Below, piece after piece: positions 4,545 to 34,881 of a stretch of 64,000 bases of DNA. The stretch covers positions 1,228 through 65,227 of the forward strand of contig CAXTPT010000011.1 of NCBI GenBank assembly GCA_964246315.1, written 5' to 3'. Each line of letters begins with the position of its first letter. Position 1 is the stretch's first letter. Origin of the DNA: an uncultured Sphingomonadaceae bacterium (GTDB lineage Bacteria; Pseudomonadota; Alphaproteobacteria; Sphingomonadales; Sphingomonadaceae). Below the pieces are notes generated by a model. It saw only the letters and a program-made list of their open reading frames with translations. It did no database searches and was not told the DNA's origin. The translations under genes were made by a program, and so were the position numbers.

Positions 4545-5528
4545 ATGACCAAAGCCAGCGCAGTGCTCGATCGCGTTCTCGTGCTCGAAATGGTCCGGGT
4601 CACTGAGGCGGCGGCAATCGCGGCCTCGACGCTGATCGGGCGGGGCGACGAAAAGGCGGCGGACGCGGCGGCAGTCGAAGCGATGCGCGCGTCGCTCAAC
4701 GAACTGGCGATGGACGGCACCGTGGTCATCGGCGAGGGCGAGCGCGACGAGGCGCCGATGCTCTATATCGGGGAGAAGGTCGGCTCGGCGCAGGGCTCGG
4801 GCCCCCGGATCGACATCGCGCTCGACCCGCTCGAAGGCACGACGATCACCGCCAAGGCGGGGCCGAACGCCCTTGCCGTGCTGGCGGTGGCAGAGGCCGG
4901 CAACCTGCTCAACGCGCCCGATGTGTATATGGACAAGCTGGCCTGCGGCCCGGGCTATCCACCCGGCGTGATCGACCTGGCGAAATCGCCGAGCGAAAAT
5001 GTCCGCGCGCTGGCCATGGCCAAGGGCGTGCAGCCGGACGAGATCATCGTCTGCGTGCTCGACCGCCCGCGCCACGAGGCGCTGATCGCCGAGCTGCGCG
5101 GGCTCGGCTGCGGCATCATGCTGATTCCCGACGGCGACGTCGCGGGCGTGATCGCCACGACCAATCCCGACACGACGATCGACCTGTATATGGGATCGGG
5201 CGGCGCGCCAGAGGGGGTGCTGGCCGCAGCGGCACTGCGCTGCGTCGGCGGGCAGTTCAAGGGGCGCCTGCTGTTCCGCAACGACGACGAACGCAGCCGC
5301 GCGCGCAAATGGGGCATCGAGGACCTCGACCATATTTATGACCTTGATGAACTGGCCAAGGGCGACTGCATTTTCGCTGCGACGGGCGTGACCGATGGCT
5401 CGCTGCTCGACGGCGTCAAGCGGTTGAAGGGCGGTCTGATGACCACGCACACCGTGGTGATGCGGGCGAGTTCGGGAACCGTGCGCTGGGTCAAGGGCGA
5501 GCACCGCAAGAGCGCGGCGCGCGACTAA
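4545..5528 (+). CDS. glpX: Class II fructose-1,6-bisphosphatase
   Basis: RVTEAAA, VVIGEGERDEAPMLYIGE, DPLEGTT, DGDVAG, GGAPEGVLAAAA. Confidence 0.95.
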   Translation: MTKASAVLDRVLVLEMVRVTEAAAIAASTLIGRGDEKAADAAAVEAMRASLNELAMDGTVVIGEGERDEAPMLYIGEKVGSAQGSGPRIDIALDPLEGTTITAKAGPNALAVLAVAEAGNLLNAPDVYMDKLACGPGYPPGVIDLAKSPSENVRALAMAKGVQPDEIIVCVLDRPRHEALIAELRGLGCGIMLIPDGDVAGVIATTNPDTTIDLYMGSGGAPEGVLAAAALRCVGGQFKGRLLFRNDDERSRARKWGIEDLDHIYDLDELAKGDCIFAATGVTDGSLLDGVKRLKGGLMTTHTVVMRASSGTVRWVKGEHRKSAARD

Positions 5529-5962
5529 AGCGCGTCTTTGAGGCGATCCAACAGCTGATGCGCCGGACTTGGCGTAGCGCTGGCCATATCAAGACTTGCA
5601 TCGAGCCGCGCGACCCGGCGGTAAAGCTCGATGCTGCCTTCGGCGAGCGCGCGGGCTTCGTCGGGCAGTCCGGCGATCGCGCCTGCCTCGCTGTCGATCG
5701 GCGTGCGCATGCGGTGCGCCTCGGCCAGCGCCTGTTGCGCCGTGATTTCGCCGGCATCGACCGCGCGCTGAGTCAAAAGCCAGGAGATGATGTGCATCAG
5801 CCGCGTCGTGATCTTGAGCGCTTCGACGCTGAACTGGACGCGGTCGAGGGCAGGCAGCGCGTCGCGCGCTGCGTGGCAGGATTCATCGAAATAGCCGCGC
5901 GCCTCGTCGCCGAGCAGCATTGCCTCGGTATATAGGCTGTCGATCAGGCGGCGTTCGAGCAT
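5525..5962 (-). CDS. rcdA: DUF1465 family protein (RcdA-like regulator of CtrA degradation)
   Basis: LYTEAMLL.DEARGYFD, ALKITTRLMHIISWLL; the upstream part of the 303-aa track ORF is spurious. Confidence 0.7.
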   Translation of the reverse strand: MLERRLIDSLYTEAMLLGDEARGYFDESCHAARDALPALDRVQFSVEALKITTRLMHIISWLLTQRAVDAGEITAQQALAEAHRMRTPIDSEAGAIAGLPDEARALAEGSIELYRRVARLDASLDMASATPSPAHQLLDRLKDAL

Positions 5963-5994: not shown

Positions 5995-6192
5995 CTAGGC
6001 GATAATATCGGGGATTAATTGGTCGCGAACCGCGCTGATCTGGTCCTTCAGCTGCAATTTCCGCTTCTTGAGGCGCGCCAGCGCCAGCTGGTCGGCGCTG
6101 CCCAGGAACACCATCGCATCGATCGCGGCATCGAGATCGCGATGTTCGGTGCTCAACGCCTCCAGCTTCGCGATCAGTTGCGCTTCGTCCAT
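5995..6192 (-). CDS. DUF465/YdcH family protein
   Basis: EHRDLDAAI..LARLKKRKLQLKDQI..LIPDIIA. Confidence 0.9.
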   Translation of the reverse strand: MDEAQLIAKLEALSTEHRDLDAAIDAMVFLGSADQLALARLKKRKLQLKDQISAVRDQLIPDIIA

Positions 6193-6480: not shown

Positions 6481-6798
6481 CTAGACCGCGTTCAGGCGGG
6501 GGCGGCGCGCCTTGGTCGGGTCAACCGGCGCGGCGAACGCCATCCCCGCCCGGTTGTCCTGCGTCCAAGCAATATAGCCGGAGATTTTGCCGAGGCCGGC
6601 AATGTCCGCGACAACCGCATCATCGACTGCCAGAGGCACATTGCTCTCGACCATCATCCCGACCGCGGAAAGATTGCGCACGGTCACGGCAAAGGCGGCA
6701 TTGCCGGCACGCTTGAGCTTGGCCTCGAGCAGAAGCGTTTCACGCTCAGCCTGACGCGAATCTGCCGAAACGGCGCGGGTTGTCGTCATGCTACGCAT
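6481..6798 (-). CDS. PilZ domain protein
   Basis: RQAER (RxxxR) and NLSAVG (D/NxSxxG) c-di-GMP motifs; start could be 6789. Confidence 0.85.
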   Translation of the reverse strand: MRSMTTTRAVSADSRQAERETLLLEAKLKRAGNAAFAVTVRNLSAVGMMVESNVPLAVDDAVVADIAGLGKISGYIAWTQDNRAGMAFAAPVDPTKARRPRLNAV

Positions 6799-6844: not shown

Positions 6845-7291
6845 TCACTCATCGCGGGACACTTTTTCTTGTTTTTCATGGCGTTCCTGCGCCTCGACCG
6901 ACATTGTCGCGATCGGGCGGGCTTCAAGGCGACCGAGCGAGATCGGCTCGCCGGTCACCTCGCAATAGCCATATTCGCCCTCGTCGATGCGGCGTAAGGC
7001 GGCGTCGATCTTGGCGATCAGCTTGCGCTGGCGATCGCGCGTGCGCAGCTCGATCGACCAATCGGTCTCGCTCGAGGCGCGATCGGTGGCGTCGGGCTCG
7101 CGCAGCGGCTCGGACTTGAGGGTCGCCAGCGTCCCCGCGCCTTCGCGCAGGATATCGTCTTTCCAGCGCAGCAGCTTGTCACGAAAATAAGCCTGTTGCC
7201 GCGGACCCATGAACTCTTCATCGGCGCCGGGACGATAATCCGCTGGCGTGGGGACCACCGCATTACTCACAGCCGATGCCACGCCCGCCAT
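6845..7291 (-). CDS. dksA: RNA polymerase-binding protein DksA
   Basis: DATDRAS acidic tip, R.R.RKLI.KI, YGYCEVTGEPI..RLEARP.AT. Confidence 0.95.
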   Translation of the reverse strand: MAGVASAVSNAVVPTPADYRPGADEEFMGPRQQAYFRDKLLRWKDDILREGAGTLATLKSEPLREPDATDRASSETDWSIELRTRDRQRKLIAKIDAALRRIDEGEYGYCEVTGEPISLGRLEARPIATMSVEAQERHEKQEKVSRDE

Positions 7292-7414
7292 GTCCGTTCT
7301 CCGCCGGTCGCGGCCCCCGCCCTGACCTGATGCGCGCCTATAGCAGCGCCCAACGCCGAGACAAGCGACCGACTCAATCGCGCGGCGTCTGCAAAAATCG
7401 AGCTAAATGAAGGG

Positions 7415-7891
7415 TTAACGGGGCTGGCTCAGCACATCTTGTCCGGCGCGGGTGCGAATCAGGCAAAGCGCGACAAAGCGCATGACCGGCTGGTCATGCT
7501 GATTGAAGACGATGGTCTGGCTGCGGAACGAGCCCATTTCGGGCCGGCTGCGTGACGACGTCTTGCTCAGCAATTCGGTTTCGCAGCGCAAGATATCGCC
7601 CGGATAAACCGGCTTCAGCCAGCGCAATTCGTCGATCCCCGCGGCGCCGAGGCCCGCTTGCTGCTGCTGGTCCATCGCCGCCACGTTCATCGCCATGGTC
7701 ATCGCGCAAGTGTGCCAGCCCGAGGCCGACAAGCGCCCGAAATGCGTCGCCGCCGCCGCTGCATCGTCGAGATGGAAGGCTTGCGGGTCGAAGCGGGAGG
7801 CGAATTCGACAACCTCCTCGCGCGTCACCTCGTAGCGGCCGAACGACCGCTTCGCCCCGACTTCCAGATCCTCGAAATACTGCATCGGCAT
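7415..7891 (-). CDS. MaoC family dehydratase
   Basis: FEDL.VG, FA..FDPQ.FHLD, ASGWHT, LRW.KPV.PGD. Confidence 0.9.
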
Positions 7892-30262: not shown

Positions 30263-30529
30263 ATGCGCAAGATTGTCACTCTTTCGATGGTTGCCGCGGC
30301 GGCGCTGGCGGTTTCGGCCTGCAGCAAGACCGAGAACACCAACACGACCGAAGTCAATGTCACGGACGTCAATGCCACCGACGCGATGGCCGGCACGACC
30401 AACGACACGATGACCAACACCGACGCGTCGATGGGCGCCATGGACAACAGCTCGACCACCATGAATACGATGGCGGACAATGGTGCCATGACCTCGACCA
30501 CGACGATGAACAGCTCGAACGCGATGTAA
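30263..30529 (+). CDS. Small Asn/Thr/Met-rich lipoprotein
   Basis: AGGGAG SD, lipobox LAVSAC, low-complexity mature part. Confidence 0.8.
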   Translation: MRKIVTLSMVAAAALAVSACSKTENTNTTEVNVTDVNATDAMAGTTNDTMTNTDASMGAMDNSSTTMNTMADNGAMTSTTTMNSSNAM

Positions 30530-30560
30530 TCTCGCGTTCAGCTTCATTGCTGAACATGGA

Positions 30561-30594
30561 AAGGGCCGTCCGGGCGACCGGGCGGCCCTTTCTT
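30561..30594 (+). terminator. Intrinsic terminator
   Basis: AAGGGCCGTCCGG-GCGA-CCGGGCGGCCCTT followed by TCTT. Confidence 0.8.
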
Positions 30595-30687
30595 GTTGCG
30601 CCGAACCGTGGCGCGCGCGAGTCCGGCCGTGCTGGCCGGACCGGGTCAAAGCGCGTACGGTCCACGCAAGTTATTGGGGATGCTTCG

Positions 30688-31335: not shown

Positions 31336-31964
31336 CGCAGCCCCAGCGCCTTGTGCGCTTGCAGCGTCAGGCGCCATTTGGGCCGGTTCATCGCCAGCGC
31401 GATCGCCGCGGCCCTTGCCGCCTCGACCTCCGCGCAGTCCATCGGCTGGACGAGGAAATGGCGGAAGTCGAGCCGTTCGAGCGCGTCGAGATCGATCCCG
31501 TCCTGCGGCCAGACGAGCTTGAGTTCGTCGCCAGCGGTTTGCGCGAGCGGATTGGCGCCTTTGGGACTGATGCACAGCCAGTCGATGCCCGGAGGCGCCA
31601 CGATCGTGCCGTTGCTTTCAACCCCGATCGAAAAGCCACGGGCATGGAGCGCATCGATCAGCGGCCCGTCGAGCTGGAGCATCGGCTCGCCGCCGGTGAT
31701 GACGGTGTAGCGGCCTTCTATCCCCCCACCCCATTCGCGCCCAACCGCATCGGCCAGCGCTTCGGCATCGGCGAACTTGCCACCGCCGCCGCCGTCGGTG
31801 CCGACGAAATCGGTGTCGCAGAACCGGCAGGCGGCCGTGACGCGGTCCTGTTCACGGCCGCTCCACAGATTGCAGCCGGCAAAGCGCATGAATACGGCCC
31901 GCCGGCCGGCTTGCACCCCTTCGCCCTGAAGCGTCAGGAACAGTTCCTTGACCGCGTAGGTCAC
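31332..31964 (-). CDS. queE: 7-carboxy-7-deazaguanine synthase
   Basis: [38 protein letters not shown]. Confidence 0.95.
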
Positions 31965-32638
31965 GCGAGCGCGGGGTCGCTCAGGCCCGCCTCGGCATAG
32001 CCCTTCGCGCGCAGCCGGCAGCTGTCGCAGACGCCGCAGGAGCGGCCATCCCGAGGATCGTAGCACGACCAGGTCTGGCCCGCATCGAGCCCGAGGCGCG
32101 CGGCTTCGCGAGCGATATCGGCCTTGGACATGTCGATCAACGGGGTGAGAACCTCGAACCCGCCCTCTTTCGTCGCGACGTCCGCCATGGCCTCGAACGC
32201 CGCGATGAATTCGGGACGGCAATCGGGATAGCCCGAATAATCGAGCGCATTCACCCCGATCGCCAGCCGGGTCGCGCCGACCGCCTCGGCCCAGCCGAGC
32301 GCGAGGCTGAGGAAGATGGTGTTGCGCGCGGGAACATAGGTCACCGGAATGCCGGGCATGACGCCACCATCCGGAACGGCGATCGCATCGTCGGTCAGCG
32401 CCGAACCGCCGAAGCGCGTCAGATCGAGCGGCATGACGACATGACGTTCGGCGCCAAGCATTGCTGCAACCCGCGCCGCGGCTTCGAGTTCGATACGGTG
32501 CCGCTGATTATAATCGATCGTCAGGGCGAAAATGCGGTAGCCCGCCGCACGCGCCAGGCCCCCCACAACCATCGAATCAAGGCCGCCGGAGACGAGCACG
32601 ACGGCGGCAGCGCCGGGATTTGCCTGCTTGAGTTTCAT
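31961..32638 (-). CDS. queC: 7-cyano-7-deazaguanine synthase
   Basis: [44 protein letters not shown]. Confidence 0.96.
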
Positions 32639-32652
32639 AGGTTCGATCAAAT

Positions 32653-32739
32653 CCGTCTTTGCCCGGCCTGTCGAAGCCTGCCCTGCTTCGAACCGGAGCT
32701 AAGAAAACGGCGGCGCTTCGACAAGCTCAAGGCAAACGG
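32653..32739. repeat. REP-like doublet (CCTGTCGAAG/CTTCGACAAGCTC class)
   Basis: CCGTCTTTGCCCGGCCTGTCGAAGC ... GCTTCGACAAGCTCAAGGCAAACGG imperfect inverted arms. Confidence 0.65.
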
Positions 32740-32749
32740 AATTTACCGG

Positions 32750-32832
32750 AAAAACAATGGGCCGCCCCGAAGGACGGCCCAGTTTCGACCTTTCGGTCAT
32801 CTAGGGAGGAAGCGCACGAAAGCTCGTTCGCT
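32750..32832 (-). ncRNA. Candidate trans-acting sRNA (SuhB/alpha-r8-like architecture)
   Basis: Three hairpins (incl. GAAA and UUCG loops), single-stranded UUCCUCCCUAGA, U-rich tail; -10 TAGACG exactly 6 nt upstream of +1. Confidence 0.7.
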
Positions 32833-32856
32833 GAAAACCGTCTACGCGCGATAGGG

Positions 32857-32871
32857 TTAACGCGAGGTTAG
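32857..32871. promoter_or_regulatory. CtrA-binding site
   Basis: TTAA-CGCGAGG-TTAG (TTAA-N7-TTAA, 1 mismatch; CTAA-N7-TTAAC on minus) at the -35 position of the sRNA promoter. Confidence 0.6.
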
Positions 32872-33780
32872 CGGGGTGAGATCTTCGGACGAGAATTCGA
32901 ACGCGTGACTGCAAAATGCGCAGTCTACGCTGACGATGCCGCGTTCATCGGCCATCTCCGCGCGCTCGTCCTCGGGAAAGCGGGACAGCACGCCGCGAAC
33001 ATAATCGCGGTCGCAACGGCAGCCGCGCGCGAGCCGGATGCCAGGCAAGGTGCGGACTTCCTCTTCCTCGTGGAACAGCCGCCAGACGATCGTCTCGAGC
33101 GAAAGATCCCGGTCGAGCAGTTCGCCGGCGCGAATCGAGCCGCCCATGATGGCGATATGTTCCCATTCGGGATGGTCGAGCCGCGTATGCAGGCGCTCGC
33201 GCCCCTCCTCGCCTTCGGGCAGATGTTGGACCAGCAGCCCGCCCGCGACGAGGCCAGTGCCGTCATCAGCGGTCGCGATGCGAATCAGGCTGGGGATCTG
33301 CTCGGACTGGGCGAAATAGCTTTCGGCGGCCGCGCCGAGCGAATCACCCTCCAGCGGAACGATCCCCTGATAGCGCTCGCCTGACGTCGCCTGATCGAAG
33401 GTGATGGCAAGATAGCCCTTGCCGAACAACGCTTCGAGCCCGGGATTTTCGCCGAGCTCGTCAAGGCGCTGGGCGTCGAATTTGACATAGCCACGCAGCT
33501 TGCCGTCCTGAAAGTCACAGACCAGCAGGCTGACAACGCCCGCCTCGGTTTGCGCCTGCAGGGTCATCTGACCGGCGGAATCCTTGAGCGTGCTGCCGAG
33601 CAACGCCGTCAGCGCGAGGGCCTCGGCCAGGAGGCGCTCGATCACCGGCGGATAGGCATGGGCAGCGGCAATCGCATCGACCGTCGCGGCCAGGCGGACG
33701 ACGCGGCCGCGCGCATGGCGCGACGGAATCATGAAGCCGAGACCCTCGTCGACGGCCGATCCAAAGTTCAATGCTGTCAT
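32857..33780 (-). CDS. hslO: Hsp33 chaperone
   Basis: YQGIV.L, YFAQSEQIPS, C-terminal CRC and CAFC zinc motif. Confidence 0.93.
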   Translation of the reverse strand: MTALNFGSAVDEGLGFMIPSRHARGRVVRLAATVDAIAAAHAYPPVIERLLAEALALTALLGSTLKDSAGQMTLQAQTEAGVVSLLVCDFQDGKLRGYVKFDAQRLDELGENPGLEALFGKGYLAITFDQATSGERYQGIVPLEGDSLGAAAESYFAQSEQIPSLIRIATADDGTGLVAGGLLVQHLPEGEEGRERLHTRLDHPEWEHIAIMGGSIRAGELLDRDLSLETIVWRLFHEEEEVRTLPGIRLARGCRCDRDYVRGVLSRFPEDERAEMADERGIVSVDCAFCSHAFEFSSEDLTPLTSR

Positions 33781-34757: not shown

Positions 34758-34881
34758 TTCCTCCCCGGAACGGGGAGAGGGACCAAGAAGTGGTGGAGAG
34801 GGCTCTCCGCATTTGGTGCGTTGCGCGCGGAAGACCCCCTGCGTCACGCTTCGCGTGCCACCTCCCCGTGCCGGGGAGGAA
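34758..34881. repeat. CIR/RIME-like intergenic miniature repeat (copy 2)
   Basis: Perfect 11-bp terminal IR TTCCTCCCCGG/CCGGGGAGGAA; fills the argD-argF gap. Confidence 0.8.

Follow-up and report, generated by a model that had tools for sequence, protein, structure and literature searches.

A conserved small RNA of the alpha-R8 (SuhB) type with a predicted CtrA-type promoter between hslO and queC in Sphingomonadaceae

Analysis of the window (the whole 64-kb stretch of DNA under study) located a predicted small RNA (sRNA) element on the minus strand, between hslO and queC. The element is probably a stand-alone gene for a trans-acting sRNA of about 83 nt, a divergent representative of the alpha-R8 superfamily (SuhB/MmgR/Sis), which would be transcribed from a CtrA-activated promoter and would act as a repressor by pairing with Shine-Dalgarno sequences. 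Comparison with related loci established its gene structure, conservation, covariation and the architecture of its predicted promoter.

The genes around the sRNA form a minus-strand set of argD, argF and hslO, followed by queC. The window derives from a Sphingomonas, and the HslO protein most similar to that of the window was found in S. antarctica (CIP 111604; 89% amino-acid identity). The features of the locus are the following:

33780..32857, minus strand: hslO (Pfam HSP33, E = 4e-67)
32871..32856, minus strand: CtrA-type full site CTAA-N7-TTAAC (CTAACCTCGCGTTAAC), with half-sites at 32871-32868 and 32860-32856, predicted to occupy -39 to -24
32857..32859, minus strand: stop codon TAA of hslO, inside the second half-site (TTAAC) of the CtrA-type box
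32839..32844, minus strand: predicted -10 hexamer TAGACG, in which the A at 32843 would be -11
32750..32832, minus strand: predicted 83-nt sRNA, with A 32832 as putative +1 and the last base of the U-tract as its end, supported by the R1 covariance model match and the fold
32811..32832, minus strand: hairpin 1, AGCGAACGAGCUUUCGUGCGCU (AGCG.ACGA-GCUU-UCGU.CGCU), from the minimum free energy (MFE) fold and covariation
32800..32810, minus strand: single-stranded pyrimidine core UCCUCCCUAGA (anti-Shine-Dalgarno, alpha-R8 core), from the MFE fold
32787..32798, minus strand: hairpin 2, GACC-GAAA-GGUC, from the MFE fold; an insertion relative to canonical alpha-R8
32781..32758, minus strand: intrinsic terminator, a 10-bp GC-rich stem UGGGCCGUCC-UUCG-GGGCGGCCCA, from the terminator scan
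to 32750, minus strand: U-tail UUGUUUUU after the terminator stem, from the terminator scan
32696..32724, minus strand: candidate separate queC promoter, TTGTCG, 17-nt spacer, TAGCTC, a pattern shared with relatives
31961..32638, minus strand: queC (Pfam QueC, E = 2e-71), the downstream neighbour, outside the sRNA

The MFE of the sRNA was -38.3 kcal/mol (z = -3.6), and an equally good fold was obtained in 1 of 200 shuffles. The terminator scan found the same stem as the MFE fold. Covariance model R1, described below, matched the window at 32748..32833 with 88 bits; a second R1 match, at 30517-30599, turned out to be an ordinary terminator and not another copy of the sRNA. The core of the window sRNA, CUUCCUCCCU, is identical to the alpha-R8 10-mer at 9 of 10 positions and is unpaired in the MFE fold except for its first U. 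All the structures listed in a preliminary description of this DNA, together with the box, were present on the minus strand where it had placed them.

For the comparative analysis, 80 Sphingomonadaceae loci were fetched using HslO as a handle. The element was found by nhmmer in about 20 of the 80, and these were used to seed the covariance models A1 and R1. R1 detected it in 59 of the 80 loci and in the window (E < 3e-4), invariably on the hslO strand. The resulting 60 sequences were aligned by fitting them to the covariance model: 93% of the cells were paired, and changes on both sides were observed at 18 of the 19 pairs. These values were reached by none of 500 shuffles, and slid-partner controls were about 42% paired.

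Each of the three helices contributed to this result. Compensatory changes were found at all 6 modelled pairs of hairpin 1 (91% of cells paired), at all 4 pairs of hairpin 2 (85%) and at 8 of the 9 pairs of the terminator (97%). RNAalifold, applied to a plain MAFFT alignment and to A3, independently recovered hairpin 1 and the terminator, again with compensatory changes. Hairpin 2 is free in sequence while its pairing is kept, its variants including GACC/GGUC, GGCC/GGCC, CAGGCU/AGCCUG, AGCCC/GGGCU and CGAG/CUCG. The stretch between the hairpins is near-invariant among the homologs. The exact 10-mer UUUCCUCCCU occurs in 19 of the 60, and a 9/10 match in 28 more, the window included. The exposed anti-Shine-Dalgarno tract that had been proposed was confirmed in the fold, where CCUCCC is unpaired, and this tract is present in 49 of the 60 homologs. 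The earlier proposal of an unannotated structured sRNA of about 83 nt thus has comparative support from the covariation and from a conserved promoter of its own, the transcript being a prediction.

In a clade that includes S. hankookensis, S. panni and Leaf isolates, a TTAA-N7-TTTA promoter and the terminator are kept while the core is changed, to UUUCCCCUA(A/G) or UUAUCCCUAAG, and is shown in the loop of a CAUG...CAUG hairpin. The changed-core loci are L009, L013, L016 and L024, which are below the model cut-off, and L014, L017, L023, L030 and L037.

The window and 20 homologous loci were searched against Rfam at gathering thresholds, and nothing was found at the sRNA locus. The recurrent sub-threshold match was RF00519 (suhB), which scored 14.0 bits in the window and 21.7-24.7 bits in the homologs, with a cut-off of 41. 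The expectation that cmscan might place the RNA in a known Rfam family was therefore not borne out; kinship with SuhB/alpha-R8, also suggested earlier, is upheld by the same architecture, the same core and reciprocal weak model matches. In the RF00519 consensus a hairpin is followed by GUUUcCUCCCUAgACUU and then a terminator; the window family repeats this order and shares the 12-mer, UUUCCUCCCUAG. A hairpin of 12-20 nt is inserted between core and terminator (before ACU) in the window family; it is absent from L022 and from canonical SuhB. It is because of this one inserted hairpin that some 60 clear homologs stay below the RF00519 threshold.

Alpha-R8 RNAs have been defined by a terminator and a single-stranded UUUCCUCCCU after a hairpin; they usually adjoin the N-formylglutamate amidohydrolase (FGase) gene, and paralogous copies at other loci are known (PMC12559287). 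The window sRNA has no N-formylglutamate amidohydrolase neighbour and lies next to argD-argF-hslO and queC instead. Since paralogous copies exist at other loci, this synteny is not strictly defining.

S. granuli TFA SuhB is the one sphingomonad member of the family that has been characterised. Its 5' end, taken from published primers, was found in 66 metagenome contigs (L081-L146). This canonical, Sphingopyxis-type SuhB was the positive control for RF00519, which it passed with 51-62 bits; its match to R1 was weak (20-35 bits). It adjoins riboflavin-synthase and Xaa-Pro aminopeptidase (aminopeptidase-P) genes, and neither hslO nor queC is in the vicinity. Its promoter contains TTGCAA-N17-TGCAATAT as well as the LysR T-N11-A site known from the literature, and lacks a TTAA box. 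TFA SuhB, the 5' end of which resembles those of L019 and L020, was considered as an ortholog of the sRNA; the other locus and the other promoter identify it as a paralog. By sequence comparison, then, the element is a distinct paralogous alpha-R8 subfamily, neither a SuhB ortholog nor, by threshold, a member of RF00519.

Among the 66 contigs the canonical SuhB is very uniform, reading CAC-UUGCCUUUUAGGCA-UCCUCUCCCAAAACUUUCAC-terminator, and its upstream region is conserved as GATTGCAAAAAATGCAA ... GCAGTTGCAACATTCATTGTGCAGTGCAATATCACAC.

Other Rfam families were rejected. SorY (RF02651) gave the best single E-value in the window, with 23 bits, far below its cut-off of 111, and only the terminator and the outer stem aligned. 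The matches to sbrA, RcsR1 and BjrC68 were, like that to SorY, driven by the terminator and far below the cut-offs. GC-rich alphaproteobacteria often have CCUCCC tracts and terminators of the GGGCCGCCC type, and a plain terminator at 30553-30592 of the window has the same arms as the sRNA terminator, so part of the likeness to alpha-R8 could be convergent.

The preliminary description had placed a CtrA box over the -35 position of the promoter. Within the window alone the box is not significant: 3 matches with at most 1 mismatch were found where 0.69 were expected, and 2 of the 3 are one site read on both strands. It agrees with TTAA-N7-TTAAC at 8 of 9 positions, its first half-site being CTAA. 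What makes the RNA and the box significant is that both recur together in about 60 related genomes. The promoters of 55 homologs, aligned on the RNA, gave the consensus C.TTAAggc..cGTTTA(A/C)CCat...g.g.TA, with high information content in both half-sites and a fixed 11-bp register. The second half-site is TTTA in most relatives; with this, and with CTAA in the window, matches are 7 of 8 and not perfect, and some homologs read better as N8; L045, L046, L058 and L071 have a perfect 9/9 box, and many homologs read exactly TTAACCAT.

A scan for TTAA-N7-TT[AT]A[ACG] over both strands of 298 kb of relatives' loci yielded 51 matches: 42 at the sRNA promoter position, 4 at the promoter of the diverged variant, 4 opposite-strand duplicates and 1 elsewhere. 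In nearly all homologs the motif keeps a fixed distance from the RNA, not from hslO, and it persists in loci with an altered RNA core.

The geometry of this promoter was compared with that of mapped CtrA promoters. In R. sphaeroides, 5'RACE mapping of CtrA-activated promoters put the box end 23-24 nt away from a start at a purine, with an A at -11 that is invariant, and by the account of the same study those of Caulobacter have the same geometry (PMC6180460). In the 55 aligned promoters, 13 nt separate the end of the box from a near-invariant A in the TA of the -10 element. Counting this A as -11 would put the box end at -24 and make the purine at the opening of hairpin 1 (in the window, A at 32832) the +1, which agrees with the start that had been proposed at the first base of that hairpin. 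The reported CtrA motifs are TTAA-N7-TTAA and an ungapped TTAACCAT (PMC6180460). Geometry and conservation thus agree with the CtrA-type promoter first suggested, and the conserved site on the sRNA gene is a prediction from motif and geometry.

The ctrA gene was not seen within the 64-kb window. An RcdA-family protein (DUF1465) is encoded there at 5962..5525, minus strand (NCBIfam RcdA, 87 bits, below the cut-off of 170), and CtrA is present in Sphingomonadales, being dispensable for growth in Sphingomonas melonis (PMC8116508); the CtrA pathway therefore exists in the lineage.

Apart from this site, the window contains a single near-match to the CtrA box, GTTAACCCTTCATTTA (TTAA-N7-TTTA) at 7404-7419, minus strand, about 110 nt upstream of dksA (7291..6845). 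On the 3' side of dksA are a PilZ-like ORF (6798..6481), a 65-aa ORF (6192..5995) and the RcdA-family DUF1465 gene.

In the window the predicted start of the sRNA is 25 nt past the hslO stop codon. In most relatives hslO and the element are separated by an ORF of about 140 codons and about 480 nt, so the overlap of the sRNA promoter with the hslO stop is a trait of the clade of the window. The earlier statement that the promoter is embedded in the 3' end of hslO holds for the window and does not hold in general. queC is located 3' of the sRNA in every locus long enough to show it.

The intervening ORF of about 140 aa (e.g. L011:2400-2940 and L028:2430-2855) has the conserved C-terminus ...TPR..V.I.TQGI...PF....RR.G.C and gave no match in Pfam or NCBIfam. 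It was lost in the clade of the window and in L015, L018, L022 and L068. The records of L011 and L028 are labelled 'Enterovirga sp.' and 'Bacillota bacterium', yet both are typical Sphingomonadaceae hslO-sRNA-queC loci and were probably mislabelled or mis-binned. The flank of another hslO locus (L038:1025-1128) carries a near-perfect long hairpin of about 100 nt, and each of its strands matched a plant miRNA model with 38 bits; it is presumably a palindromic repeat, not an miRNA.

An insertion of about 85 nt with a 12-nt inverted repeat (32660-32745; arms 32666-32677 and 32715-32726) lies between the sRNA terminator and queC in the window. The closest relatives, L001-L003, do not have it, and their queC ATG is 26 nt after the model match, compared with 109 in the window. 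The insertion is present in a single copy in the window, and its short 31-mers were found at high depth in contaminated RNA runs; it may be a REP- or MITE-like element with many copies elsewhere in the genome.

The public runs containing the sequence, which yielded no usable support for the transcript, were eukaryote libraries (single-cell, polyA) contaminated by a Sphingomonas about 90% identical to the window. Their contigs are 200-400 nt long with a depth of 3-16, and the type of molecule had to be guessed; some end just past the terminator and others cross into queC. The idea that read coverage is limited to the sRNA part did not hold.

Several alternatives to the proposed gene were weighed. 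The same alpha-R8-like sRNA might be transcribed independently of CtrA, with the TTAA repeat being the site of another regulator or an unusual extended promoter element. The CtrA site was predicted from its motif and geometry, the second half-site is mostly TTTA with N8 spacing in some homologs, and other alpha-R8 genes have unrelated regulators, such as LysR in S. granuli; in addition, sisA-D have no promoter motif in common (PMC12559287). We regard this as doubtful, though the most credible of the alternatives, since the 11-bp register, the TTAACCAT variant, the box end at -24 and the A at -11 are jointly close to published CtrA-activated promoters and the motif is virtually absent elsewhere in the 298 kb. 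It is extremely improbable, on the other hand, that there is no separate gene and that the structures are simply the hslO 3' UTR with its terminator, or a fragment derived from it. The closeness of the RNA to the hslO stop in the window would suit such an origin, and so would the contigs of contaminated runs, shallow and of uncertain molecule type, that continue from hslO to the terminator; in most relatives, however, the intervening ORF and about 480 nt separate the two, and the distance of the promoter motif is fixed to the RNA.

The linkage to queC raised the question of a riboswitch-like leader or attenuator acting in cis on queC-queE, in which the terminator would decide between stop and read-through and the core would sense a ligand or mask the queC ribosome binding site. 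The element is on the same strand as queC and, in relatives, 10-236 nt upstream of its ATG, a distance that does not exceed 50 nt in about 30 of 38 and is 109 nt in the window; contigs from some runs span from the middle of the sRNA through the terminator to queC. Against this reading, neither preQ1 nor any other riboswitch family of Rfam was matched by the window or the homologs, even at E <= 10, and no conserved pairing was seen as an alternative to the terminator, a strong stem of 9-10 bp. Moreover, 21 of 39 loci (e.g. L002, L007, L011 and L056) have a TTGNNN-N17-TAGNNN pattern, always with a 17-nt spacer, that ends 7-11 nt before the queC ATG (5% of shuffles), which suggests that queC has its own promoter, giving a leaderless or very short-leader mRNA. 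A role as cis-leader is unlikely because queC appears to have this promoter of its own. Sphingobium, Pontixanthobacter and others lack the element although their queC is in the same position. The core is shared with alpha-R8 RNAs that act in trans and come from unrelated loci, and in the window the insertion of about 85 nt parts the sRNA from queC. With the promoter-like motif of queC and the absence of the element before queC in several genera, the preQ1-riboswitch or leader was rejected as the main explanation, and we give it very little credence. A slightly better, still small, chance is given to the sRNA and queC being one coupled unit, in which CtrA-driven transcription of the sRNA would occlude the queC promoter or read into queC-queE: in many species the queC -35 element is in or right after the U-tract of the sRNA terminator, with the queC ATG coming within the next 16-55 nt. 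Such coupling, if true, would make synthesis of the tRNA modification queuosine depend on the CtrA state (motility, replication), in addition to the role in trans.

Two further observations were made on the queC side of the locus. In several species the -35 element of queC overlaps the sRNA U-tract, and L006 and L012 contain remnants of the sRNA element.

The preferred reading, a CtrA-driven sRNA acting in trans, can be set out as a sequence of steps. Phosphorylated CtrA would bind the TTAA-N7-TTAAC direct repeat, roughly between -39 and -24, as the promoter motif suggests, and from there would activate RNA polymerase carrying the housekeeping sigma factor, the first transcribed base being the purine at the opening of hairpin 1. 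The exposed UUCCUCCCUAG tract, together with Hfq, would then pair with Shine-Dalgarno regions of the GGGAGGAA type in several mRNAs, as the relatives do. In S. granuli, the sites to which SuhB binds with Hfq are the Shine-Dalgarno regions of thnR, phbB and SGRAN_4018, through which it represses translation (bioRxiv 10.64898/2025.12.09.693200), and the pairing site of SisA is the alpha-R8 10-mer (PMC12559287). Judging from S. granuli SuhB and from Caulobacter SisA-D, pairing would block translation of the target mRNAs. By analogy with SuhB and SisA, the only two for which they are known, we infer Hfq binding and base-pairing through the 10-mer for the window sRNA; its CtrA dependence and translational repression are likewise presumed. 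The cell-cycle-regulated repressor of the preliminary description is a more specific reading than the comparative evidence supports. CtrA activity, reflecting motility, surface attachment and the state of replication, would in this way be passed to a post-transcriptional regulon, plausibly of carbon, storage and envelope genes.

The search for sites complementary to the sRNA core within the window gave 7 against 6.9 expected, equal to chance. The Shine-Dalgarno region of argF (CCGGGGAGGAA, 34758-34768, minus strand) contains GGGAGGAA, the exact complement of the core.

In Alphaproteobacteria there is growing evidence that alpha-R8 RNAs such as MmgR, SuhB and SisA-D regulate carbon storage, the transition from feast to famine and stress tolerance. 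To our knowledge, the transcriptional inputs of these RNAs reported so far are nutritional (LysR-type, NtrC, AniA). In the present case a paralogous alpha-R8 subfamily keeps a predicted CtrA-type promoter in Sphingomonas, Sphingomicrobium, Sphingosinicella and their relatives. If the prediction is true, it would provide a post-transcriptional arm of the CtrA regulon in an order whose CtrA is non-essential and controls motility and biofilm, and the translational control of metabolism would be coupled to changes of lifestyle. In the literature searched, no alpha-R8 RNA was connected with CtrA, and these copies may have been listed earlier. The prediction is readily testable, because promoter, predicted start site and seed are defined to the nucleotide. 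The analysis also revealed a gap in RF00519, the threshold of which leaves out about 60 clear homologs.

The sRNA resembles the alpha-R8 RNAs (SuhB, S. meliloti MmgR, Caulobacter SisA-D) in its 5' hairpin, its single-stranded UUUCCUCCCU(AG), its intrinsic terminator and its U-tail. It differs from them in the extra hairpin of 12-20 nt between core and terminator and in its locus, which is that of hslO/queC and not the FGase gene or the riboflavin-synthase neighbourhood. Its promoter has the TTAA-N7-TTAAC box, whereas that of canonical SuhB has the LysR T-N11-A site with TTGCAA-N17-TGCAATAT.

Compared with the CtrA-activated promoters of Caulobacter class II flagellar genes and ccrM and of R. 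sphaeroides fla2, the sRNA promoter is alike in having a full site, predicted to lie near -35; counted from its predicted start, it would share with CtrA promoters of both species a box ending about 24 nt away, the A at -11 and the purine start. Those promoters serve flagellar or cell-cycle protein genes, whereas this one would serve a small RNA, and its box is degenerate (CTAA in the window, TTTA in most relatives). Among sRNAs, Caulobacter CcnA and a set from R. capsulatus have CtrA-dependent levels, with no mention of an alpha-R8 link in the text that was searched (PMC8959179, PMC5546546). No relationship in sequence or structure was found between these RNAs and the window sRNA. CtrA-affected sRNAs were thus already known, and what is new here is best described as the predicted CtrA-type promoter of an alpha-R8 RNA. 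The element is a precise extension of two known systems and not a novel kind of element.
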